Assembly: GCA_041640855.1 (NCBI GenBank)
Contig: JBEPZK010000002.1
Coordinates: 24,964-88,963 of the forward strand
Direction: 5' to 3'
Length of the DNA stretch: 64,000 nucleotides
Origin: Candidatus Kryptoniota bacterium
GTDB taxonomy: Bacteria > Bacteroidota > Ignavibacteria > Kryptoniales > Kryptoniaceae
The notes under the pieces are model-generated. The model was not told the origin of the DNA. It saw nothing but the letters and a program-made list of their open reading frames with translations, and ran no database searches. Below are positions 4,716-16,912 of this stretch, piece after piece (the stretch's first letter is position 1; the number at the start of each line of letters is the position of its first letter). Both the position numbers and the translations under genes were made by a program.

Positions 4716-6179
4716 ATGTTTGCAACTGCTGGAATAATCATCATCTTTATTCTTATGGTTATTTTGATGTTTTTCCGCATCCTGCCTGCTTTGTTGGCAA
4801 TCCCAATTATGGCGTTTTTGATATCTTTAATCGCTGGTGTGCCATTAAATGATATTTTTGTTTATGTCATAGGCGAAGGGGCGTTGAGATTACACCAAGC
4901 GTATACGATTGCTATTTTCGGTGGAATGCTAAGTATATTTTTGCAAAAGTCTGGAATTGCTGAAAATTTCGTAAGGAAAGGTGCAGAACTTGCTGGGGAT
5001 AATCCATTTAATGTAAGTTTAATTGTTTTAATTTTAACCGCGCTTTTATTTACAACACTTGGTGGATTAGGCGCAATAATTATGGTTGCCACAATAGTTT
5101 TGCCAATTATGGCTTCGGTTGGGATAAGCTCAGGCACAGTTGCTGGAGTTTTTCTAATAGGTTTGAGCATTGGTGGAATTTTAAATGTTCAAAATTGGGC
5201 GTTATATATAAATGTTTTAAAGGTCGATTTCAGTACAATTAGGGCTTTTGCCTTTATACTTTTCGTTGTATCATTTCTTGTAGCACTTGCTTTTATCATT
5301 ATCGAATTGAAGCGAGAAAAATTGTTGAGAGATTTGAGGTTCTTTTTTAACCCAAAGTTTATACTTGCGATAGTTGCAATTTCAGGTTTGATTCTGCTCC
5401 TTGTTTTCATCTCTGGAGCTAATCCGGGGATAGTTGAAGTTTTAAAGCGATATTTTAAATCTTTAATTTTGGCACTCCTCTTATTGTTCGCACTTTACAT
5501 TTTCATTGATTTCCTGCGCAATTTGCTTATCCCATCTCGGGCTGGTAAACTTAAATGGTATGTGTTTTTAACTCCCATTGTTCCTTTGGTTGTTGTCTTT
5601 GCTTTTGGTGAGCGATATTTTATCCCTGGGTTTATAGGTGGGCTTTTTTATGGGTTCATTACATCATATAGAAAGGGAAGCATTAATTTACTTGTACAAT
5701 CGGTCATTGAAGGTGGCAGCAGTGTAATTCCAGCTGTTGCATTGATGCTTGGCATTGGGATGCTTCTGAACGCTATTCTTGGACCGGTTGGATGGAGTGG
5801 AGAGGAGTGGAAAGTTTACTCTTGCCTCAAACCTTTGTTTAAAGTTATAGTACCAAGTTCTCCGGTTTTATATATTTTGGTGTTTTCGTTATTAAGCCCG
5901 CTTGCTCTTTATCGTGGACCTTTAAATGTATGGGGACTTGGATATGGAATTGCTACCCTTATATCTTATCCTGTTGGGACACTTCCACCTGCTTCGGTGA
6001 TGGGATTACTGCTTTCCGTTGGGCAAATTCAGGGAGTTTGTGACCCAACGAACACTCACAATGTTTGGATTGCGAATGAATTAAGAATCGATGTAAATCA
6101 AATTTTAAAGAAGACATTTCCATACATGTGGATTCTTGCAACTTTGGGATTGATAATTTCCGCGATTATGTTTTTGTAA
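4716..6179 (+). CDS. Ion-transporter-superfamily (GntP/CitMHS-like) permease, substrate unknown
   Basis: About 12 hydrophobic segments; GGMLS...SGIAENFVRKGAELAGD and GAIIMVATIVLPIM patterns resemble IT-superfamily organic acid permeases. Confidence 0.65.
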   Translation: MFATAGIIIIFILMVILMFFRILPALLAIPIMAFLISLIAGVPLNDIFVYVIGEGALRLHQAYTIAIFGGMLSIFLQKSGIAENFVRKGAELAGDNPFNVSLIVLILTALLFTTLGGLGAIIMVATIVLPIMASVGISSGTVAGVFLIGLSIGGILNVQNWALYINVLKVDFSTIRAFAFILFVVSFLVALAFIIIELKREKLLRDLRFFFNPKFILAIVAISGLILLLVFISGANPGIVEVLKRYFKSLILALLLLFALYIFIDFLRNLLIPSRAGKLKWYVFLTPIVPLVVVFAFGERYFIPGFIGGLFYGFITSYRKGSINLLVQSVIEGGSSVIPAVALMLGIGMLLNAILGPVGWSGEEWKVYSCLKPLFKVIVPSSPVLYILVFSLLSPLALYRGPLNVWGLGYGIATLISYPVGTLPPASVMGLLLSVGQIQGVCDPTNTHNVWIANELRIDVNQILKKTFPYMWILATLGLIISAIMFL

Positions 6180-6197
6180 AGTTTTTTAGAAAGAATT

Positions 6198-6899
6198 ATG
6201 CTCTGCGAAATTTGCAACACCCTTAATTCAAAGTTTTCTGTAAAGTGTAAAACATGCGGCGCTTTTTTGCAAAACCCTGTTCGCGTTCTAAATCTTTTTG
6301 AAACAGTTGGAATGCTCATCCTTAATCCAACTGAAGCGTTTCACAAAATTATATTGTCTGAGAGAAAAAATTTTTCAATTTTTCTCGCGCTTCTTTTCGG
6401 GATAGCGATAACATTTGACCTTTTTTATCTTGCAAAGGCCGGTGAAAAGGTTGATAATTTAGCGCTTCTTATTTTTTATATCACCGCGTTTGGCGCCTTG
6501 CTGGGAATTATACTTATCACGGTGATTTCTCTTGTGATAAAACTCCTTCTTCTTTTTTCGGAAGAGAAAATAGGTTTCAAATCAATTTTTTCGGTTTTTG
6601 CTTATTCTGTATTTCCAATCGCTTTTTCTGTTTTCTTTCTTCTACCTGCATTTTTGTCTGTTTTTGGAATTTATTACTTCACCGAATCGCCGAAACCCGA
6701 GGCTCTTAAACCGATTCCATTTTACATCTTATCTGTAGCTAACCTTGGCTTGAAAATATATTCCTTTGCATTGCTGAGCATTGCTTTGAAGCATATAACG
6801 GGCAATTTTTTAAAGGGGCTTGTTTTTGCGTTTTTACCTTCAATTTGTGTGCTTGTTTTATTAAATTTATTAACAGAAGCCATCAAAATTATCCTATAG
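6198..6899 (+). CDS. Yip1-family membrane protein with N-terminal zinc ribbon
   Basis: CEIC...CKTC ribbon, then LNPTEAF and about five TM helices including SVFAYSVFP. Confidence 0.65.
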   Translation: MLCEICNTLNSKFSVKCKTCGAFLQNPVRVLNLFETVGMLILNPTEAFHKIILSERKNFSIFLALLFGIAITFDLFYLAKAGEKVDNLALLIFYITAFGALLGIILITVISLVIKLLLLFSEEKIGFKSIFSVFAYSVFPIAFSVFFLLPAFLSVFGIYYFTESPKPEALKPIPFYILSVANLGLKIYSFALLSIALKHITGNFLKGLVFAFLPSICVLVLLNLLTEAIKIIL

Positions 6900-6903
6900 A
6901 GCG

Positions 6904-9105
6904 ATGATAAACAGAGTTAAAATAGGCATCGATGTCGGCGGGACCTTTACGCATGCGGTTGCAATTGATGTTGATACGCTTGAAATTGTGGCGAAAAGTT
7001 GCGTTCCCACAACCCACTTTGCAAGAGAGGGCGTGGCTCTGGGGGTAATCCAAGCGATGAACGAGGTTTTGAAAAATGGGAATATTAATCCTGAGCAAGT
7101 AGTTTTAATCGCGCATAGCACAACCCAAGCAACAAACGCTCTTCTTGAAGGTGATGTCGCAAAGGTTGGTATAATAGGTATGGGGACAGGAATTGACTCA
7201 ATTAGAGCGAGAGGTGAAACTGATATTGGGAAGATTCCACTTGGTAATGGCAAATTCATTGAGACTGCTCATATTTTCGTTGATTCAAAAATCTTTGAAA
7301 GCAAAAAATTTCAAGATGAGTTAAAAAAGGCAATTGATTATTTAATTTCTAAAGGTGCTGAAGTTTTTGTCGTGAGCGAGGCATTTGGGGTTGATGACCC
7401 AAGCAGGGAAGAAAGGGCTCTTGAAATAATAAGAGATTTCGGTTTCATCGGGACAAACGCATCTTCAATCTCACAACTTTATGGATTGAGAGTCAGGACA
7501 AGAACTGCTGTTGTGAACGCAAGTATGCTTCCTAAAATGGTTGAAACAGCGCGGATGACAAAGGAAAGCGTGAAAAGATCTGGGGTATTAGCTCCACTTA
7601 TGGTTATGCGAAGTGATGGTGGAATAATGAATATAGAAGAAATGTCCAAAAGACCCATTGCTACGATTTTGTCGGGACCTGCGGCTGGCGTTGCTTCTGC
7701 TCTGATGTATGTTAAAGTTGTTGATGGAATTTTCATAGAAGTTGGCGGAACGAGCACCGATATATCGGTTATAAAAAATGGGAGACCAATTGTTAAAACA
7801 GCTGAAATCGGCGGAAATCGTTTATATTTTAGAACACTTGACGTTAGAACCGTTGGGGTGGCTGGCGGTTCAATGGTTCGAATCTCGAGTAACTTCAAAA
7901 GCATAATTGATGTTGGGCCTAGAAGTGCGCATATAGCGGGTTTAAAGTATGTTGCTTTTTCAGATCCAAGCGAATTTGATGATATCGAATTTGTTTTAAT
8001 TCAGCCAAAACCAAACGATCCATCAGACTACCTTGCTATAAAAAGAAAGAATTCAGATAAACCAGAATTTGCGTTGACCACAACCGACGCTGCGAACTTT
8101 TTAGGCGTCCTAAGCGAAAAAGCATATAGCAAGGGAAATTTTGAATCGGTTGAGAAAGTCTTTTTGAAACTTTCTGAAATTATGAAAAAGCCACCAAAAG
8201 AAATCGCAAAAGCAATTCTTGATATCGCAGCTGATAAAGTAAAGGATATCGTTAACGCTCTTATAAAAGAGCATAAACTTGACATTAATCTTGTTACGCT
8301 TGTCGGCGGAGGTGGGGGAGCTGAGGTTATAGTTCCATACCTTGCGAAGAGGATGAACTTTGATTATAAAATTTCAGAAAATGCAGAGGTTGTTTCCGCA
8401 ATTGGTGCAGGTCTCGGGATGATAAGGGAAAGCATCGAACGTGTGATTTTAAATCCAAGCGAGGATGATATATTGAAATTGAGAAATGAGGTCATCGTTT
8501 CAGCAATAAAAATGGGAGCAAAACCTGATTCAATACAAGTGACGATAGAAATCGATAGGCAAACTAAAAGAGTTACAGCAATAGCAACCGGTATCCCAGA
8601 TTTGAAAAGTGGCGATGTGATGCCCAAAATTTTACCAGATGAAGAATTGTTCGAAATAGCTGTTAAATCGTTCAGAGGGTTGTTCAGTAGGCTAAAATAT
8701 GAGGCAAATGTGCCAGAGGTTAAAGTACTTGCTCAAAATAAATTTTACAAAGTTTTCGGGGCTGAGATCGAGAGAAGAAAATTGTTTTTCTTTAAGGAAA
8801 ACATTAAACCTGTGAAAGTATTTGACCTTGAGGGAAATATTAAAATCCAACTCTCAAACGCTGAAGTAGTTGAGACTAATATCGATAGATATGAAAAAGA
8901 TTTAATTAATGTTCTTGAAAGTTTAACTATTTATGGCGATGCCGGTGCAATTGCGCCGGATGTGTTTTTGATTTACGGTTCAAAAATTATCGATTTGACT
9001 GGAGTGATGTTCAAAGAGCAGATGCTTTCAATAGCAAAAGCTGAATTGAAAAATGCAAATTTTATCGATGATAAATTAATAATACTTGCTGAAGAGAGAA
9101 GATGA
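6904..9105 (+). CDS. Hydantoinase/oxoprolinase A-subunit-like ATPase (ASKHA fold)
   Basis: GIDVGGTFT, HSTTQATNALL, SGPAAG, EVGGTSTDI and GGGGG motifs. Confidence 0.85.
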   Translation: MINRVKIGIDVGGTFTHAVAIDVDTLEIVAKSCVPTTHFAREGVALGVIQAMNEVLKNGNINPEQVVLIAHSTTQATNALLEGDVAKVGIIGMGTGIDSIRARGETDIGKIPLGNGKFIETAHIFVDSKIFESKKFQDELKKAIDYLISKGAEVFVVSEAFGVDDPSREERALEIIRDFGFIGTNASSISQLYGLRVRTRTAVVNASMLPKMVETARMTKESVKRSGVLAPLMVMRSDGGIMNIEEMSKRPIATILSGPAAGVASALMYVKVVDGIFIEVGGTSTDISVIKNGRPIVKTAEIGGNRLYFRTLDVRTVGVAGGSMVRISSNFKSIIDVGPRSAHIAGLKYVAFSDPSEFDDIEFVLIQPKPNDPSDYLAIKRKNSDKPEFALTTTDAANFLGVLSEKAYSKGNFESVEKVFLKLSEIMKKPPKEIAKAILDIAADKVKDIVNALIKEHKLDINLVTLVGGGGGAEVIVPYLAKRMNFDYKISENAEVVSAIGAGLGMIRESIERVILNPSEDDILKLRNEVIVSAIKMGAKPDSIQVTIEIDRQTKRVTAIATGIPDLKSGDVMPKILPDEELFEIAVKSFRGLFSRLKYEANVPEVKVLAQNKFYKVFGAEIERRKLFFFKENIKPVKVFDLEGNIKIQLSNAEVVETNIDRYEKDLINVLESLTIYGDAGAIAPDVFLIYGSKIIDLTGVMFKEQMLSIAKAELKNANFIDDKLIILAEERR

Positions 9106-10400
9106 AAACATTGAAAAGCTATAAAAGAACGAAAATAATTGAAACAGATGTTGCAATTGTCGGCGGTGGGCTAAGTGGAATCGTAGTTGCTTTAAGTTGT
9201 GCAAGCAATGGATTAAGAACATTACTAATTGAGAAATATGGATTTCCGGGCGGGCTTATAACAAACGCATTTGGTTATCCGTTAAGAATCTTTAATGTGC
9301 AAAAAGATTTTTCAGAACTTTTTATGTCGGAAGATTTTGAGAGGATAGAATATCCAATTTTTTCGACCGTGATAAGATATCTTCTCAAAAATGAAGCGAT
9401 CTCACAGAAATTAATCCCTGACCCGCTTAGAATATCAGCTTCAATTATACCCCTTGACTTCGAAAAATTTAAATTCACGCTCCTTGAACTTTTACTTGAT
9501 TTTAAAGTTGAGATTCTCTTTCATTCTTCGTTTGTCAGAGCTAAGTTAAGGGGTAAAACTGTCAAGAGTATTTTTGTCCTTGGCAAAGAGGGATTAATAG
9601 AGATATTTGCGAGATACTTTGTCGATGCGACAGGAAATTGTGTTGTTTTCAAATCTATTGATGAAAGTCTAACAAAAAAGCTCGATGCAGATGTAAGGTA
9701 TAACTTTATTTTAACAGGATGTGATTTTAGCAAGATAGATGAACGAATTGTTTGTGAAAAAGTTGAAGTGGGAGATATTACATATCACGCTTATGTTGTA
9801 AGTAGAGATGGTGAAAGGTTCGCGATTTATGAATTGCCTTTGAAAAATCATTGTGTCGTTTTTGGTTTATCCAGAAACGGATTCAGCCCAGAAGATATTT
9901 TCTCTGTCAGCGAAGCTGAGGAGGAGTTGCAATTAAAAGTTTATTCTCTCATCGAATACCTTAAGCAGTTTAAACCTTTCGAAAACGCTAGAGTTTCAAC
10001 GTTCCCGGCGCAAATTTACTTTACAGAGGGACGCAAATTGAATGGTTTGTATTCTTTAACTGTCGATGATGTTCTTAACGGCAAAAATTTCGATGATGAA
10101 ATCGCGGTTACCAAAGTCTCAGTGATTGGCGATAAAATTTTCCCATGTCTTCTTTCACCGGATAAGAAATTTGATTCCGCTATCCTTCGGTTTCCATTGT
10201 CTTCTTTCTTGACCGATGTTAAAAATCTCGTCGCGGTTGGCAGAAACGCGGACGTAAGCGATGACTTGAAGTTTATACTCTATTCTTTCCCATTCGTTAT
10301 GAAAACATCGGAAAACATCGGCAGGGTTATATCATTCGCTTTCAAAAATAATTTAAATTTGACGGACTTTAAAACAAAGGCTAAGTTTGATCTAACTTGA
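9102..10400 (+). CDS. FAD-dependent oxidoreductase (PF12831-like), divergent copy
   Basis: VGGGLSG dinucleotide motif, EKYGFPGG and DATGN; ATGA overlap with the upstream gene. Confidence 0.75.
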   Translation: MKTLKSYKRTKIIETDVAIVGGGLSGIVVALSCASNGLRTLLIEKYGFPGGLITNAFGYPLRIFNVQKDFSELFMSEDFERIEYPIFSTVIRYLLKNEAISQKLIPDPLRISASIIPLDFEKFKFTLLELLLDFKVEILFHSSFVRAKLRGKTVKSIFVLGKEGLIEIFARYFVDATGNCVVFKSIDESLTKKLDADVRYNFILTGCDFSKIDERIVCEKVEVGDITYHAYVVSRDGERFAIYELPLKNHCVVFGLSRNGFSPEDIFSVSEAEEELQLKVYSLIEYLKQFKPFENARVSTFPAQIYFTEGRKLNGLYSLTVDDVLNGKNFDDEIAVTKVSVIGDKIFPCLLSPDKKFDSAILRFPLSSFLTDVKNLVAVGRNADVSDDLKFILYSFPFVMKTSENIGRVISFAFKNNLNLTDFKTKAKFDLT

Positions 10401-11080
10401 AAAGTGAAGTCTTAGAAAATATCAAAGGTGGTTTGATTGTTTCATGCCAACCTGACGAATATGGACTTTTTTCAAAGGTTGAATGCATAGTTGAATTTGC
10501 CCGTGCATCTGAACTTGGTGGGGCGGTTGGAATTCGAACTGAGGGGTTTGAAAGTATCAAAGCGGTGAAAAATGCGGTTAAAATCCCTGTCATCGGTTTA
10601 ATCAAAGGGAAACGAATAGATGGAACTGTAGTTATAACTCCGGATCTTGAATCTGTGGAAAAAATTGTGCAAGCAGGAGCAGATATAATTGCAATTGAAG
10701 TTACGAAGCAAGAGGGAAGATTTAAGCTTTTTAAAGATGTGCGAAATAACTTTAAAAACTCAATTTTAATGGCTGACATTTCAACTTACGAAGAGGGCAT
10801 TAAGGCTTGCGAACTCGGTGCTGATTTAATCGCTACGACTTTATCAGGTTATACTCCATATACCGCTAATTCACTTAACAAATATGAGCCTGATTTTAAA
10901 CTTGTTGAAATGCTTGCAAAAGAAGTAAATGTTCCAATTATTGCGGAAGGTCGGATATGGACGGTTGAACAAGTTAAAAAAATGTTCGACCTTGGTGCAT
11001 ATGCGGTTGTAGTCGGGTCGGCGATAACAAGACCAAGGTTAATCGTTCAAAGATTTGTGGAAGCGATATCAAAAAGATAA
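10397..11080 (+). CDS. nanE: N-acetylmannosamine-6-phosphate 2-epimerase
   Basis: GLIVSCQ, GIRTEG, PVIGLIK (Schiff-base Lys), TTLSGYT, AEGRI and VVVGSAITRP; TTG start overlapping the upstream stop. Confidence 0.9.
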   Translation: MKSEVLENIKGGLIVSCQPDEYGLFSKVECIVEFARASELGGAVGIRTEGFESIKAVKNAVKIPVIGLIKGKRIDGTVVITPDLESVEKIVQAGADIIAIEVTKQEGRFKLFKDVRNNFKNSILMADISTYEEGIKACELGADLIATTLSGYTPYTANSLNKYEPDFKLVEMLAKEVNVPIIAEGRIWTVEQVKKMFDLGAYAVVVGSAITRPRLIVQRFVEAISKR

Positions 11081-11088
11081 AAGAAAAA

Positions 11089-12447
11089 ATGTCCAAATTT
11101 TTGAGGAATATTAAGGACATTGGCGAATTCGATGTGGTAGTGGCGGGAGCTGGAATAGCCGGTGTTTGTGCTTCAATAGCATCATCAAGAGAAGGTGCGA
11201 AGACGGTTTTAATTGACAAATATGGTTTTTTCGGTGGGATGTCAACCGCTGGGCTTGTTTCTCCATTTATGAAATATTGGATAATTGATGAATTTGATGG
11301 AAGGGTTAAACCATTAGTGGGTGGCGTTTTCGAGGAGATAACAAGGCGGATGGAGCAAATTGGCGGAATGATAGATAACGGCTTCAGTGCGTGGGCTTTT
11401 AGAAAGGTTGTAAATGAATTGCTTTGTGAATCAGGAGTTAAAACTTTAAGACATACGATGGTTTTTGGAGTTGAATTTGATAGAGTTGATAAAAGAAAAA
11501 GAATCACATCGTTAATTTTAAATCGAGATTCCGATTTTTATCGCGTGCATGGTAAGGTGTTTATCGACACAACTGGGGATGCGGACATCGTTTATTTAGC
11601 AAATGCGGGTTGGATGAAGGGTGATGAAAAAACGGGATTAACTCAAGCGATGACTTTGTTTTTCAGAGTTGGCGGAATTGACGTTAAAAAGGCGGTTGAA
11701 TTTGTAAGACAAAACCCAGAACAATTTTATTCTTGGTCGACGAGTGAATATATCCCAGGGAGAATTGTCTCAATTGCTGGATATTTTGACCTTGTGAAGG
11801 AAGGGAAGGAGAAAGGAATACTTCCAGAAGAGATCCAGTACATATTTTTTACAACTTTACCTGAAGAAGGAGAGGCTTCGTTTAACACGACAAATATCCT
11901 TGGGCTTGATGCTACAAGTTCATTTGATTTAACAAAGGCGGAGATAACAGGAAGATTGCAGATGTGGATGGTTTATAACTTTTTAAAGCAAAGGATTCCG
12001 GGATTTGAAAATTCATATTTGATTGAATCCGGAATCCAAGTCGGGGTTAGGGAGACAAGAAGAGCGATTGGTGAATATATTGTAACAGGTGAAGATGTTT
12101 TGAGCGGACGTAAATTTGAAGATGCAATTGCCCGAGCTTGTTATGGAATCGATATTCATGGTCAAAGAGGCGAATCATCAAGATTAGAGCATCTCTCAGA
12201 AGGACAATACTATGAAATTCCGTTAAGGGCTTTGATAGTTAAAAAAGCACATAATTTGCTTGTTGCTGGAAGATGTATATCGTCAACTAGGGAAGGACAT
12301 TCTGCTCTAAGGATACAGGCAACATCAGCTGCAACAGGTGAGGCAGCAGGCGTCGTTGCTGGATTATCAATAGCATATGATGGAAACGTTAGAAGTGTAC
12401 CATACCAAGTTATAAAAGAGAAATTAAAAGCACGTGGAAACATTTAA
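11089..12447 (+). CDS. FAD-dependent oxidoreductase (PF12831-like)
   Basis: VAGAGIAG, GGMSTAGLV, DTTGDAD, GVRETRR, YGIDIH and LLVAGRCISS motifs. Confidence 0.88.
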   Translation: MSKFLRNIKDIGEFDVVVAGAGIAGVCASIASSREGAKTVLIDKYGFFGGMSTAGLVSPFMKYWIIDEFDGRVKPLVGGVFEEITRRMEQIGGMIDNGFSAWAFRKVVNELLCESGVKTLRHTMVFGVEFDRVDKRKRITSLILNRDSDFYRVHGKVFIDTTGDADIVYLANAGWMKGDEKTGLTQAMTLFFRVGGIDVKKAVEFVRQNPEQFYSWSTSEYIPGRIVSIAGYFDLVKEGKEKGILPEEIQYIFFTTLPEEGEASFNTTNILGLDATSSFDLTKAEITGRLQMWMVYNFLKQRIPGFENSYLIESGIQVGVRETRRAIGEYIVTGEDVLSGRKFEDAIARACYGIDIHGQRGESSRLEHLSEGQYYEIPLRALIVKKAHNLLVAGRCISSTREGHSALRIQATSAATGEAAGVVAGLSIAYDGNVRSVPYQVIKEKLKARGNI

Positions 12448-12468
12448 AAACAAAATGGGACACAAATT

Positions 12469-13476
12469 ATGAAGAAAAAAATCAACGCAGTTCAATTTGG
12501 ACTCGGTCCGATAGGACAATTATGTGCTAAAACGATTTTGCAAAAACATTCAGACAGAATTAATCTTGTAGGAGCCATCGATATAGCTCCATCGAAGGTT
12601 GGAAAAGACCTTGGGGATTTGCTTGGGATTGAGAAAACGGGGATAATAGTTGAGGATAATATTAAAAAGGTTTTAAAAAAGCATAAGGTTGACGTCGTGT
12701 TTCATACCACGACTTCATTTATGAGCGATGTCAAGGAACAGTTAGCTGAGCTCATTAAGATGAAATTAAATATAGTGTCATCAACAGAGGAACTTTTCTT
12801 CCCCTGGTTCAGGAATGGTCAAATAGCCCAGGAAATTGATAATCTTGCAAAGAAATTTAAAGTTAGGGTTCTCGGAACTGGTGTTAACCCGGGATTTGTT
12901 ATGGATGTTCTCCCAGCGGTGTTAACTCAAGTTTGCACAAGTGTAAAGAAGATAAGGGTTGAAAGAGTCGTGAACGCTTCGAAAAGGAGATTGCCACTAC
13001 AACTTAAAATAGGAGCTGGGTTGAAAGTAGGGGATTTCAAAGCAAAGAAAGAAACGGGCAGATTTGGTCATATCGGACTTGTTGAATCATTGCAATTTCT
13101 GGCGTATATTCTAGGTATAGAACTTGATGAGGTGAAGGAAGACTTGAAGCCTATAGTCACGAAGAAAACTGTTAAGACAGAGCATTTGATTGTTCAAAAA
13201 GGAAAGGTTGCTGGAATTCATCATACCGCGGTCGGAATTAAAGATGGCAACGAAGTTATAACCCTTGATTTAAAGATGTATGTTGGCGATCATAAAGATT
13301 ATGACGCAGTTTATATCGATGGAGAACCTCCGATAAAGATGAAAATTTTAAATGGAGTCTTTGGTGATATTGCAACTGTTGGAAGTTTGATAAATTGTGC
13401 TTATTTGATATTCAATTCTAAACCTGGTCTTTTGACCATGGCGGATATTGGTTTACCTCATGGATTTTTAAAATAA
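12469..13476 (+). CDS. NAD(P)H-dependent amine dehydrogenase / 2,4-diaminopentanoate dehydrogenase-like protein
   Basis: FGLGPIG Rossmann motif, SSTEELFFP, GTGVNPGFVMD, GHIGLVES and GDIAT. Confidence 0.72.
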   Translation: MKKKINAVQFGLGPIGQLCAKTILQKHSDRINLVGAIDIAPSKVGKDLGDLLGIEKTGIIVEDNIKKVLKKHKVDVVFHTTTSFMSDVKEQLAELIKMKLNIVSSTEELFFPWFRNGQIAQEIDNLAKKFKVRVLGTGVNPGFVMDVLPAVLTQVCTSVKKIRVERVVNASKRRLPLQLKIGAGLKVGDFKAKKETGRFGHIGLVESLQFLAYILGIELDEVKEDLKPIVTKKTVKTEHLIVQKGKVAGIHHTAVGIKDGNEVITLDLKMYVGDHKDYDAVYIDGEPPIKMKILNGVFGDIATVGSLINCAYLIFNSKPGLLTMADIGLPHGFLK

Positions 13477-13485
13477 AGTTGGTTT

Positions 13486-14445
13486 GTGAAGTTGAGTTAT
13501 AAGTTTATACTTTCAAAATGGCTTGCGCTTGGGAATGATTTAAAGGCACATATAGTTTTGAATCCCTATGCGGGGCGATGGAAAGGCGCGAAGTTGTATC
13601 ACAAAATCATGAAATATGCAAAACTTTTAAGGCAACTTGAAAAGTTTCAATTAACAACTGCTCCGGGTGAAGCTATCAAAATAGCTCGGGAAACAACCGC
13701 AGAACTTGTCGTAGCAGCTGGTGGAGATGGAACTATAAACGAGGTTGTGAATGGAATTTTGCAAAGTGGTTCTGAAAAATTGCTTGGCGTAATACCAATT
13801 GGCTCTGGAAATGATTTCGCTAAGATGTTAAATTTGAAGCCGTTCAAAATCAAGCTCGCACTTGAATCGATCAAGAAAAGAAAAGTTGTGACATCAGATG
13901 CAGGTTTAATTCAATTTTTGACTTCGGATGGGAAGTTAGGGGAGAGATTTTTTATAAATGGAGTTGGAATTGGTTTTGATGCAATGACCGCGGATGAGAG
14001 CAGAAAGATAAAGCATTTACGCGGTATCCCGCTTTATTTGTTTGCGCTTTTAAAAACGCTTTCGAAATATGAAAGCCCGGAGATGGAAGTTTATATCGAT
14101 GGTAAATTGATAAAAGATAAAATTTTTCTCATCGCAATTGGCAATGGTGCATCAGCAGGTGGAGGTTTTCTTTTAACCCCACATGCTAAAATTGACGATG
14201 CTCTGCTTGATGTCTGCGTAGTTAATGACCTATCGATTTTCAGAGTTTTCCAGGTTATTCCAACTGTTTTAAAGGGAAAGCATACCCATTATCCGGAAGT
14301 TCGAATGTTCAAAGCAAAAGAGATAGAAGTTCGTTCAAATTCAAACTTGACAATGCATGCAGATGGTGAAATACTTGGAACATCATTGCGATGGATTAAA
14401 GTTTCAATAATTCCTTCAGCAGTTGAAGTTATCTCAAACATATAG
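13486..14445 (+). CDS. Diacylglycerol kinase-family lipid kinase (YegS/BmrU-like)
   Basis: NPYAG, GGDGTINEV, PIGSGNDFA, GIGFDA and ADGE motifs. Confidence 0.9.
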   Translation: MKLSYKFILSKWLALGNDLKAHIVLNPYAGRWKGAKLYHKIMKYAKLLRQLEKFQLTTAPGEAIKIARETTAELVVAAGGDGTINEVVNGILQSGSEKLLGVIPIGSGNDFAKMLNLKPFKIKLALESIKKRKVVTSDAGLIQFLTSDGKLGERFFINGVGIGFDAMTADESRKIKHLRGIPLYLFALLKTLSKYESPEMEVYIDGKLIKDKIFLIAIGNGASAGGGFLLTPHAKIDDALLDVCVVNDLSIFRVFQVIPTVLKGKHTHYPEVRMFKAKEIEVRSNSNLTMHADGEILGTSLRWIKVSIIPSAVEVISNI

Positions 14446-14455
14446 GGGAATAAAC

Positions 14456-16912
14456 GTGAAAATTTTAAAAGTAAATAAATACGGCTATTTCACTGAAGAT
14501 GGAAAAGAATTTGTGATAACAGAACCTAAAACTCCAGCACCATGGATGAACTACATTTGGAATGGTAAATGGGCTGGCCTTGTGAGCCACACCGGTGGCG
14601 GATATAGTTTCTACATTACACCAAGAGATAATCGCTTGACAAGATATAGATATAACTGCTTGCCCTGGGACCAACCTGGCAGATATGTCTATGTCAGAGA
14701 TAGAAAAATTGGAAAATACTTTTCCCTGAGTTGGTCTCCAACCGTTGATTTAACTTATGATTTCTATGAATGCAGGCATGGACTTGGGTACACTAAGATA
14801 ACGACGGAGAACTTTGGAATAAGAGGAGAAATCACATATTTTGTCCCGATTGATTTAGACGCCGAGATTTGGCTGATCAAGTTAAAAAACTTAACAAAAG
14901 AAAGAGTAGAGTTAGATGTTTTCGCCTACATCGAACTTGTGATGGGGAACGCGCTAAATGACCTTATAAACCAACCGAATGACAAACATTTTCCCGATGT
15001 CTATTTTGACAAGAAATTGAACTCAATTGTTGCCACGAGAAGATATTGGGTTACAAACAAAGGTGTAAGTGTCGCTCAACCAAATCATGCTTGGCCATAT
15101 TATTTGCTTTTTTCAACATCGCTTGATGTGAAGGGTTTTGATGGAGATAAAGAAACTTTCATTGGAAGATGGAGAGGCAATGCAAATCCAGAAGCAGTGG
15201 AGCGAGGACAATGTTTCAACACTGAAATAACCGCTGGCGATCCATGCGCTGTACTTCAAACCGAGGTAGAACTTGAACCTGGGGATGAAAAAGAGTTTGC
15301 CTTCTTTATGTTTCTTGTCGATAAACCATCTTTGCACACGAATGAAAGACTGAAAGACCGCTCAAGGTCTTTTAACAAAGCTGTGGAACTCTTAAGGAAT
15401 CTTCGCAATGTCGAATTTATTAAGGAAAAATTTTCGACATTGAAAGAATATTGGGAAAATTATTTGCAAACTCTACAGGTTGATACGCCAGATGATAAAT
15501 TAAATCTTTTTATCAATGTATGGAACCGATATCAGATTGCGGTTACATTTGATATGTCGCGCAATGCCGGATATTATCACGGAGGTTTATTGTTTGGAAC
15601 AGGAATTCGAGACCAAATGCAGGATATTTTTGGAGAGTTAATTGCAAATCCGAAAAGGGTAAGAGATAGATTGCTTGAAGTTTGTTCTTACCAATTTAAA
15701 GACGGTAGCATGCTACATAACTTTTTCAGGATTTCAAAAACGGGAGAGAAAACTGGACATTGTGATACGCCTTTGTGGTTACCATTTGGAATTTTTGTCT
15801 ATCTTAAGGAAACTGGCGACTTTAAAATTTTAAATGAAAAAGTTGAATATTATGATGGTGGCAAAGGAACGGTTTTACAGCATTTGTTGAAAGCGATCGA
15901 TTATTCGCTTGGAAATCTCGGGAAGCACGGTTTGCTTAAGTTTGGGCGTGGTGATTGGAATGATACTCTCGATTATGTCGGACTTAAAGGGAAAGGTGAA
16001 ACAGTTTGGGGTTCGGAATTTCTTGCATATATTTTAAGAGAAGCTGTTGAACTGTTCAATTACCTCGGGCTTAAAAGATATGTTAAACGATATTCTGAAG
16101 AATATCTAAAAATTGCAGAAAATTTAAACAAATTTTGTTGGGACGGCAAGTGGTATATAAGAGGTTTTAAAGATGATGGATCCCCTTTTGGTTCTTCAAA
16201 AAATAAAGAAGGTAAAATTTTTGCAAACCCTCAATCATGGGCTGTGATAAGTGGGATAGCAGATGAAGAAAGAACGCGTATTTGTCTTGATTCAATAAAA
16301 AAATATCTCGATACGCCAAAAGGACCTAAAATTTTGCATCCTCCATTTACAAAAGTTGACCCAACAATCGGACTTGCCACGAGATGTGTTCCTGGGAAAA
16401 AAGAAAATGGAGCAATTTTTAATCATGTAGCAAGTTGGGTTTTCCTTGCTGAGTTAATTGCTGGTAATGCAGAAAGAGCATACAAAATTTATCATGCTAC
16501 GCTTCCGATAAATAATGCGGTTGACGCGGATATTTACAAAATGGAACCGTATGTTTATTCAGAATATATAACAAGTCCGGACCACCCAACCTTTGGAGAA
16601 GCAAGTCATTCTTGGTTAACTGGCTCATCTGATTGGTTTTTCAAAAGCGTCGTTGAATATATGTTAGGAGTTAGACCAACATATGGAGGATTGATGCTCG
16701 ATCCGTGTGTTCCATCCGAGTGGAAAAGTTTTAAAATTACAAGATTATATAGAGGGGTCAGATATGAAATTGAGTTTTTAAACCCTGATGGAGTTAATAA
16801 AGGTGTAAAGGAGATATGGGTCGATGGACAGAAATATGATAAGCATATTCTCCCAATTCCAAGGAAGGGAAGCATTTGTAAGGTTAAAGTTATAATGGGA
16901 AATAAAAACTGA
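14456..16912 (+). CDS. GH94 glycoside phosphorylase (cellobiose/chitobiose phosphorylase-like)
   Basis: TPAPWMNY, GRYVYVRD, CRHGLGYT, RDQMQD, catalytic GDWND, WDGKWYIRGF, ENGAIF and SWLTGS. Start moved to GTG 14456, which follows AGGGGAA. Confidence 0.88.
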   Translation: MKILKVNKYGYFTEDGKEFVITEPKTPAPWMNYIWNGKWAGLVSHTGGGYSFYITPRDNRLTRYRYNCLPWDQPGRYVYVRDRKIGKYFSLSWSPTVDLTYDFYECRHGLGYTKITTENFGIRGEITYFVPIDLDAEIWLIKLKNLTKERVELDVFAYIELVMGNALNDLINQPNDKHFPDVYFDKKLNSIVATRRYWVTNKGVSVAQPNHAWPYYLLFSTSLDVKGFDGDKETFIGRWRGNANPEAVERGQCFNTEITAGDPCAVLQTEVELEPGDEKEFAFFMFLVDKPSLHTNERLKDRSRSFNKAVELLRNLRNVEFIKEKFSTLKEYWENYLQTLQVDTPDDKLNLFINVWNRYQIAVTFDMSRNAGYYHGGLLFGTGIRDQMQDIFGELIANPKRVRDRLLEVCSYQFKDGSMLHNFFRISKTGEKTGHCDTPLWLPFGIFVYLKETGDFKILNEKVEYYDGGKGTVLQHLLKAIDYSLGNLGKHGLLKFGRGDWNDTLDYVGLKGKGETVWGSEFLAYILREAVELFNYLGLKRYVKRYSEEYLKIAENLNKFCWDGKWYIRGFKDDGSPFGSSKNKEGKIFANPQSWAVISGIADEERTRICLDSIKKYLDTPKGPKILHPPFTKVDPTIGLATRCVPGKKENGAIFNHVASWVFLAELIAGNAERAYKIYHATLPINNAVDADIYKMEPYVYSEYITSPDHPTFGEASHSWLTGSSDWFFKSVVEYMLGVRPTYGGLMLDPCVPSEWKSFKITRLYRGVRYEIEFLNPDGVNKGVKEIWVDGQKYDKHILPIPRKGSICKVKVIMGNKN

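Follow-up and report, generated by a model that had tools for sequence, protein, structure and literature searches.

A block of nine co-oriented genes, nt 4716–16912 on the + strand, was analysed in a 64,000-nt stretch of contig JBEPZK010000002.1 from a hot-spring Candidatus Kryptoniota bacterium (hereafter the window). Located between the housekeeping genes def-fmt and era, the block probably represents a member of a widespread cytoplasmic module that salvages amino sugars from microbial cell-envelope glycans, a reading to which we assign a probability of roughly 0.55 on the basis of family assignments and gene neighbourhoods. Its genes encode, in order, a permease, a Yip1-domain membrane protein, a HyuA-like ATPase, a flavoprotein of family PF12831 (flavoprotein 1), the N-acetylmannosamine-6-phosphate 2-epimerase NanE, a second PF12831 flavoprotein (flavoprotein 2), an amine dehydrogenase, a YegS/DAGK-family kinase, and an inverting beta-disaccharide phosphorylase of glycoside hydrolase family 94 (GH94). 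The block is a genuine conserved operon of the type of pathway built from GH94, a mutase and a kinase, and includes HyuA without its usual partner HyuB, the PF12831 flavoproteins, and a permease outside Pfam; no role in sugar metabolism was found for these three families in the literature, nor was any publication found that characterises the module. The genome assembly comprised 2.27 Mb in 107 contigs and was 98.9% complete.

Conservation of the module across lineages

Full-length homologues of the HyuA-like protein were aligned, yielding 80 genomic loci onto which the window proteins were mapped and in which all open reading frames (ORFs) were clustered. These loci spanned Ignavibacteria, Calditrichia, KSB1, Bacteroidota (including the isolate Hymenobacter psychrotolerans), Sumerlaeota, Neomarinimicrobiota and Sericytochromatia, the nearest being Candidatus Kryptonium/Kryptonia records with a HyuA identity of 71% to 73%. 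Partners were counted in the 36 loci that had at least 9 kb on either side of HyuA and represented at least seven phylum-level lineages. The permease was present in 33/36 and, in 53/71 loci with enough upstream sequence, immediately preceded HyuA in the same orientation; NanE was the second most conserved partner (28/36), followed by any PF12831 protein (24/36), GH94 (20/36, orthologues 49% to 60% identical), a PGM/PMM-type mutase (17/36), GH38 (17/36), a HAD-like protein of 455 amino acids (aa) (13/36), a SusC-like receptor set (13/36), GHL10 (8/36) and DUF5009 (7/36). Since GH94 is a conserved partner of HyuA, the block extends functionally to the end of the GH94 gene at nt 16912. Runs of permease-HyuA-NanE were numerous, and compact variants such as permease-HyuA-PGM-GH94-NanE (L174) and DUF4127-GH3-HyuA-PF12831-BadF-NanE (L173) were observed.

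A second scan was centred on flavoprotein 2 in metagenome contigs. Of the 16 longer loci holding an orthologue of at least 44% identity, 13 had it inside the module; in one of the three exceptions, the orthologue lay between two secreted glycoside-hydrolase-like genes. Remoter PF12831 paralogues were found in other carbohydrate contexts. Of 101 genomes sampled from the phylum, 5 encoded the HyuA-like protein, 6 NanE and 4 both, so that NanE occurred in 4/5 genomes with the HyuA-like protein versus 2/96 without it (Fisher p = 1.8e-5). Synteny is the decisive evidence that these genes form a linked unit. A preliminary description of nt 4716–13476, made from the sequence and its ORFs, had proposed a catabolic unit that imports and dismantles a substituted amino sugar and feeds the metabolism of N-acetylmannosamine (ManNAc) 6-phosphate and N-acetylglucosamine (GlcNAc) 6-phosphate; the linkage across phyla and the co-occurrence support this, orthologues being not scattered but keeping NanE linked to HyuA.

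In a higher-GC lineage, the chain at L173:810-11565 consisted of overlapping genes for GHL10/DUF4985, DUF4127, GH3, the HyuA-like protein, PF12831, a 152-aa protein, a BadF kinase and NanE. Two further families, DUF4127 and DUF4855 (the latter seen in L028 and L074), are tied to the module. In Candidatus Kryptonium thompsonii (L008:12218-13946), two genes are inserted where the overlap between HyuA and flavoprotein 1 would be, one for a secreted, esterase-like protein of 285 aa that contains the motif GLSMGG and the other for a 243-aa protein resembling a ZIP-type metal transporter. A 735-aa permease-HyuA fusion of the 'Rosetta-stone' kind (P0254, L174:152-2359) was set aside as a probable assembly frameshift, because HyuA, PGM and GH94 are all split on the same contig.

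NanE and the downstream route

The NanE of the block scored 170 bits against Clostridium perfringens NanE (4UTT). Its K70 aligned with the Lys of the IIGIIK motif in 4UTT and its E184 with the Glu of the EGR motif, residues which we take to be the catalytic Lys66 and Glu180 of the C. perfringens enzyme. Across 48 NanEs of the module, conservation of K70, E184 and R212 reached 95% or more, and the catalytic Lys that had been ascribed to NanE beforehand is therefore present.

No match to the NanA/dihydrodipicolinate synthase family (TIGR00683) was obtained anywhere in the genome, and in 7 genomes carrying the module or NanE, no NanA exceeded the cut-off. The nagA and nagB genes were located on contigs C11 and C9, respectively, and MurQ scored above its cut-off here as well as in 5/6 other genomes checked. 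Because NanA is missing from the genome and NagA, NagB and MurQ are encoded elsewhere in it, NanE is not part of sialic-acid catabolism, whereas the presence of NagA and NagB makes the GlcNAc-6-phosphate formed by NanE usable. Thus, nanA, nagA and nagB are not in the window, as had been noticed, and the possibility raised at the same time, that ordinary sialic-acid catabolism explains nanE, does not hold in a genome without NanA. The idea that NanE or a flavoprotein stands in for a MurNAc-6-phosphate etherase (MurNAc, N-acetylmuramic acid) was discarded, since MurQ is present. The NanA model cross-matched DapA in 13/14 control genomes and nothing in this genome; the organism may be without dihydrodipicolinate synthase and hence without lysine synthesis by that route.

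Neither a ROK nor a BadF kinase was found within the block, where the candidates for a kinase are the HyuA-like ATPase and the YegS-like protein. Among the HyuA-centred loci, a BadF kinase occurred in 0/83 and ROK proteins appeared only as helix-turn-helix regulators, in 5 loci.

The HyuA-like ATPase, the flavoproteins and the permease

The AlphaFold2 (AF2) model of the HyuA-like protein (predicted local distance difference test score, pLDDT, 80) matched over its full length the beta subunit of acetone carboxylase, N-methylhydantoinase, the alpha subunit of caprolactamase and Apc subunits, with Foldseek E values of 1e-21 to 1e-27 over about 700–800 columns. The ASKHA motifs DVGGTFTH, EVGGTSTD and GGGGGA were invariant across 60 HyuA-like sequences. 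No match to Hydantoinase_B (PF02538) was found in the genome, the control being positive in 6/14 reference genomes, and no HyuB was seen beside the HyuA-like homologues among the called genes of the related loci inspected. From its fold and motifs, the HyuA-like protein is predicted to be an ATP-dependent enzyme that activates or phosphorylates the imported substrate; a role as a kinase is supported by the lack of BadF kinases in the HyuA-centred loci.

Flavoprotein 1 was of full length here and had an intact GGGLSG motif, whereas in most other lineages it had 250–300 aa and often a degenerate dinucleotide-binding motif. Flavoprotein 2 was the conserved partner immediately 3' of NanE. Its AF2 model had a pLDDT of 85, and a fold search with it returned only generic flavoproteins with two dinucleotide-binding domains, at template-modelling (TM) scores not exceeding 0.5. 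An RE(S/T)RR motif was conserved among the PF12831 proteins. A scheme on the gluconate model, in which the substrate is oxidised in the periplasm and the resulting acid is taken up, was weakened by the finding that the N-termini of four PF12831 proteins start at the flavin adenine dinucleotide (FAD) motif, leaving no signal peptide.

The permease, which is predicted to reside in the inner membrane, had many hydrophobic stretches. No Pfam or NCBIfam match was obtained for it, even at E ≤ 1 across 32 members, nor was any match found in the PDB by profile. The names given to its homologues by NCBI and JGI, 'citrate transporter' or 'H+/gluconate symporter-like', suggest an anion-type carrier resembling those of the ion transporter (IT) superfamily.

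GH94, associated genes and the nature of the substrate

Genes of related loci point to glycans of the cell envelope. These loci carry SusC-like receptors, DUF5009 acetyltransferase-like proteins, an aminoglycoside-type N-acetyltransferase, VanY and GH3, as well as secreted GHL10, GH26-like and NAGPA-like proteins with tails for the type IX secretion system (T9SS). Escherichia coli DigH cleaves peptide-free (denuded) peptidoglycan strands (PMC12288456). DigH belongs to GHL10 (453 bits) and shares only 22% identity with a module-associated GHL10. No SusC-like TonB-dependent receptor lies beside the block in the window, so that by this criterion the block is not a polysaccharide utilization locus; homologues of the receptor and its partner were found on contig C64 (42% to 46% identity).

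A second amino-sugar locus was located on contig C11 (L090, C11:16000-35900). Besides a SusC-like receptor and a PorV-like barrel, its products include a 1206-aa protein, a BadF-type kinase, an SSF symporter and a GH3 fused to a domain of beta-lactamase fold; nagA lies on the other strand. The locus looks like a conventional system for scavenging muropeptides or chito-oligosaccharides. With this locus and MurQ already in the genome, the module should handle another substrate. ManNAc is indicated by NanE and, taken with GH94, the mutase of relatives and a carrier of apparent anion type, this suggests that the substrate may be a ManNAc-containing, beta-linked disaccharide of bacterial wall polymers. 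A second GH94 paralogue, 39% identical, was present on the small contig C82 (C82:2564-3982).

Gene organization and accessory genes

Coordinates and family matches of the nine genes are listed in Table 1. From the permease through the amine dehydrogenase, the successive junctions measured 18, 4, -4, -4, 8 and 21 nt, the two overlaps being ATGA at nt 9102–9105 and TTGA at nt 10397–10400. Six co-oriented genes with such junctions had been recognised from the start and were recovered from the ORFs; the gene list omitted the Yip1-domain gene and stopped before the kinase and GH94. The housekeeping borders were equally tight (fmt/permease, 2 nt; GH94/era, 15 nt), and the spacing is for this reason uninformative here. 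The preliminary description had cautioned that adjacency in so gene-dense a run, mixing unrelated genes, was weak evidence; the caution was sound as regards spacing, but 'unrelated' does not apply to GH94, a conserved partner. Scans for promoters and terminators gave results no better than chance, and an Rfam scan of the window returned zero matches. The start of the GH94 gene is ambiguous, its longest ORF beginning with a TTG and overlapping the kinase gene by 23 nt.

Table 1. Genes of the putative amino-sugar salvage block
Gene product	Position (nt)	Strand	Family matches and features
Permease	4716–6179	+	487-aa polytopic membrane protein, no Pfam/NCBIfam match
Yip1-domain membrane protein	6198–6899	+	PF04893, 36 bits
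HyuA-like ATPase	6904–9105	+	733 aa, Hydant_A_N + Hydantoinase_A (PF05378 + PF01968)
Flavoprotein 1	9102–10400	+	PF12831, 133 bits
NanE, N-acetylmannosamine-6-phosphate 2-epimerase	10397–11080	+	NF002231, 247 bits (cut-off 189); PF04131, 189 bits
Flavoprotein 2	11089–12447	+	PF12831, 348 bits
Amine dehydrogenase	12469–13476	+	DapB_N + DAP_DH_C; DAP_DH_C, 126 bits
YegS/DAGK-family kinase	13486–14445	+	DAGK_cat + YegS_C; TIGR00147, 174 bits
GH94 phosphorylase	14423–16912	+	PF17167, 415 bits; PF06165, 258 bits

The amine dehydrogenase and the YegS-like kinase were linked to the module only in Kryptonia loci and in the metagenomic lineage L087, where the order is Yip1-HyuA-NanE-amine dehydrogenase-kinase and HyuA is only 54% identical; the kinase was always 3' of the dehydrogenase. 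The Yip1 protein, which carries an N-terminal, zinc-ribbon-like CxxC-x12-CxxC motif, was likewise restricted to Kryptonia and L087 among module loci, the same family preceding HyuA in L087. The amine dehydrogenase, the kinase and the Yip1 protein are thus a lineage-specific add-on outside the conserved core, whereas the preliminary description had listed the dehydrogenase among the genes of the pathway.

The amine dehydrogenase is an NAD(P)-dependent enzyme of the 2,4-diaminopentanoate dehydrogenase/AmDH4 family. It scored 275 bits against the Ord equivalog NF040740, below the cut-off of 400, and 183 bits against 6G1H/6G1M, which we take to be Petrotoga AmDH4; a Glu-Glu pair aligned with residues 102–103 of 6G1M, and a Glu of this pair presumably has a catalytic role. 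Its best homologues were named Kryptobacter and Chrysopegis by their sources, and other close ones (55% to 57% identity) were encoded beside an Asp/Glu racemase, an MR_MLE dipeptide epimerase, an M20 peptidase and an amino-acid permease. The accessory genes may deal with an amine, amino-acid or peptide portion of that wall material, and we have moderate confidence in their functional link to the module.

Proposed pathway and alternative explanations

In the proposed pathway, the anion-type permease would take up a small, probably acidic, beta-linked fragment of a microbial cell-envelope glycan. The HyuB-less HyuA would spend ATP in activating or phosphorylating this fragment or a free N-acetylhexosamine, trapping the substrate in the cell, while the pair of PF12831 flavoproteins could carry out a redox step, e.g., the removal or conversion of a substituent. 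As predicted from its family, GH94 would phosphorolyse the disaccharide to a free sugar and a sugar-1-phosphate, the latter to be converted in relatives by the clustered PGM/PMM mutase; here, only a distant PGM/PMM homologue, on contig C17, was found. NanE, the orthology of which is well supported, would epimerise ManNAc-6-phosphate to GlcNAc-6-phosphate, from which NagA and NagB, the genes of which are present, would complete the route to fructose-6-phosphate. As to the substrate class, a ManNAc-containing beta-1,4 disaccharide, such as the ManNAc-beta-1,4-GlcNAc of the linkage units of Gram-positive wall polymers or of secondary cell-wall polymers, is a guess that we put forward as possible. 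More tentative still is a scheme in which the trio of permease, HyuA and flavoprotein acts as a new kind of uptake-and-activation system, with the HyuB-less HyuA and the PF12831 flavoenzyme processing an acidic ManNAc derivative (e.g., pyruvylated or phosphodiester-linked ManNAc-beta-1,4-GlcNAc of Gram-positive secondary wall polymers) and GH94 serving as a ManNAc-type disaccharide phosphorylase.

If true, the trio and GH94 would constitute an undescribed pathway by which bacteria of the FCB group and others gain nutrients from the wall polymers of neighbouring cells. Knowing the substrate would give a function to thousands of proteins annotated as 'hydantoinase' or 'FAD-dependent oxidoreductase', and might add a new specificity to GH94 and a new use to the HyuA fold. 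The lineages carrying the module (at least seven at phylum level) are abundant in sediments, mats and springs, and the module could reveal how amino sugars of the cell envelope in microbial necromass are recycled in carbon cycling. Carriers such as Hymenobacter psychrotolerans DSM 18569 and Ignavibacterium can be grown in culture, which makes the module amenable to experiment.

Several observations weigh against the salvage module as read here. The uniformly tight spacing of genes in this genome says nothing about function. The flavoprotein-permease-HyuA trio can occur without NanE, as in the compact variant L176, where it stands alone, and in genome G033. The window itself is without the clustered mutase, GH38 and HAD genes seen in other lineages, the homologues elsewhere in the genome being a PGM/PMM 25% identical on contig C17 and a GH38 28% identical on contig C1. 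A kinase function of HyuA is weakened by the free-standing trio of L176 and by L173, in which a BadF kinase coexists with HyuA and NanE, so that HyuA is not simply the missing kinase there; moreover, HyuA enzymes of established function operate alongside HyuB and transfer phosphate to carbonyl or enol oxygens, and to our knowledge none is a sugar kinase. The GH94 of the block scored 584 bits against the cellobiose phosphorylase 3QDE versus 491 bits against the chitobiose phosphorylase 1V7V; these scores favour cellobiose phosphorylases, and the enzyme could simply act on cellobiose. None of the seven published GH94 activities is of the ManNAc type, and there is no precedent for the phosphorolysis of ManNAc-beta-1,4-GlcNAc (PMC9052796).

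Other routes would place the same proteins differently. By reactions that depend on ATP and FAD, the trio might itself produce free ManNAc or GlcNAc from an acidic sugar, candidates being a ManNAc that bears a pyruvyl or lactyl group and an N-acetyl-aminouronic or aldonic acid; a separate kinase would follow, and HyuA would be no kinase. That the trio travels without NanE in L176, that L173 couples HyuA, PF12831, BadF and NanE in one chain, and that the RE(S/T)RR motif could bind an anion would agree with this, as would the chemistry of the beta subunit of acetone carboxylase, which phosphorylates both enolate and bicarbonate; with no BadF kinase in any of the 83 HyuA-centred loci and no chemical precedent for such sugar conversions, we consider this scheme doubtful. 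A peptidoglycan-disaccharide route, in which the permease imports the acidic disaccharide GlcNAc-MurNAc, GH94 splits it, HyuA phosphorylates MurNAc or GlcNAc, and MurQ, NagA and NagB finish the conversion with NanE peripheral, appears unlikely, because it leaves NanE, present in 28/36 loci, and the flavoproteins without a role and because the genome already devotes to muropeptides a conventional locus equipped with a kinase and a transporter. In its favour are the GHL10 (the DigH family), VanY, GH3 and DUF5009 genes of related loci, the presence of MurQ, the separate locus with the GH3/beta-lactamase fusion, BadF kinase and nagA, and the dipeptide epimerase, racemase and M20 peptidase genes that adjoin homologues of the amine dehydrogenase. 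A model for an ATPase-energised permease is provided by ArsA, which associates with ArsB, a carrier of the IT superfamily, and by analogy the HyuA-like ATPase might energise the permease and have no small-molecule substrate of its own. Permease and HyuA are indeed the most invariant pair (33/36; adjacent on the same strand in 53/71), but the full HyuA architecture is kept, the C-terminal domain included, HyuA occurs without an adjoining permease in L087 and L003, and the fusion P0254 is probably an artefact, all of which makes this role improbable.

The preliminary description had suggested catabolism of Amadori (glycation) products formed at high temperature, given ATP- and FAD-dependent enzymes and an amine dehydrogenase beside an amino-sugar epimerase in a thermophile. 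Amadori catabolism is defined by a DAO-family amadoriase, or by a fructosamine kinase together with a SIS-domain deglycase. No fructosamine-kinase or SIS-deglycase family was matched in the block, and the two flavoproteins scored 24.8 and 21.2 bits against the DAO model (cut-off 27.9), matching in the N-terminal FAD motif only, amadoriases being, as we assume, members of the DAO family. The module is common in genomes from non-thermal environments, including that of the psychrotolerant H. psychrotolerans, its relatives lie in glycan loci with SusC-like, GH94, GH38, GHL10, DUF5009 and NAGPA genes, and the amine dehydrogenase is missing from most versions; the suggestion is thus very unlikely to be correct and is abandoned. 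Chance adjacency of unrelated genes on a gene-dense strand has still less to recommend it: all junctions are tight, those with housekeeping genes included, and the amine dehydrogenase and kinase are linked in two lineages only, but synteny and co-occurrence across phyla have already refuted it for the core, and for the accessory genes the order HyuA-NanE-amine dehydrogenase-kinase recurs with a HyuA only 54% identical.

Comparison with known systems

The accessory amine dehydrogenase shares the two-domain fold family and the aligned Glu-Glu pair with native amine dehydrogenases and Ord, but, unlike Ord, it falls below the equivalog cut-off and has no OraSE or OrtAB beside it, its neighbours being PF12831 and the YegS-like kinase. 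The HyuA-like ATPase has the full-length fold and the ASKHA nucleotide motifs of the HyuA/HyuB lactamases and carboxylases that depend on ATP (N-methylhydantoinase, 5-oxoprolinase, caprolactamase, and acetone and acetophenone carboxylases), whereas no HyuB is encoded in the genome and the ATPase is constantly accompanied by a permease and by enzymes of sugar metabolism. A permease followed by an ASKHA-fold ATPase and NanE recalls NanT-NanK-NanE, and NanE is a good orthologue; in contrast to the nan operon, there is no NanA in the genome and no NanK of the ROK or BadF type in the block, the ATPase being a 733-aa protein of the HyuA type.

In the xanthan-oligosaccharide locus of Ruminococcaceae UCG13, a GH38 alpha-mannosidase occurs with a GH94 cellobiose phosphorylase (PMC10881899). 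Relatives of the module similarly pair a cytoplasmic GH38 (17/36) with GH94 (20/36), which fits a beta-1,4-linked disaccharide that bears mannose and derives from an acidic exopolysaccharide. Unlike the UCG13 locus, the module is without PL8, GH88 and GH5 and has NanE, HyuA and PF12831, and the window has no GH38, the only homologue being the one on contig C1.

The (GlcNAc)2 operon of Vibrio encodes a GH94 chitobiose phosphorylase (ChbP), a GlcNAc-1-phosphate mutase and a GlcNAc kinase. Compared with it, the module adds NanE and one or two PF12831 flavoproteins, has a HyuB-less HyuA that would replace or supplement the conventional kinase, and uses a permease of an unmodelled family instead of an ATP-binding cassette (ABC) transporter or phosphotransferase system (PTS), while its GH94 forms a separate orthologous group that is not nearer to ChbP than to cellobiose phosphorylase (CBP). 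Both systems share the uptake of a disaccharide, its phosphorolysis by GH94, a mutase (in 17/36 relatives), an enzyme predicted to act on the free sugar with ATP, and GlcNAc-6-phosphate as the end point.

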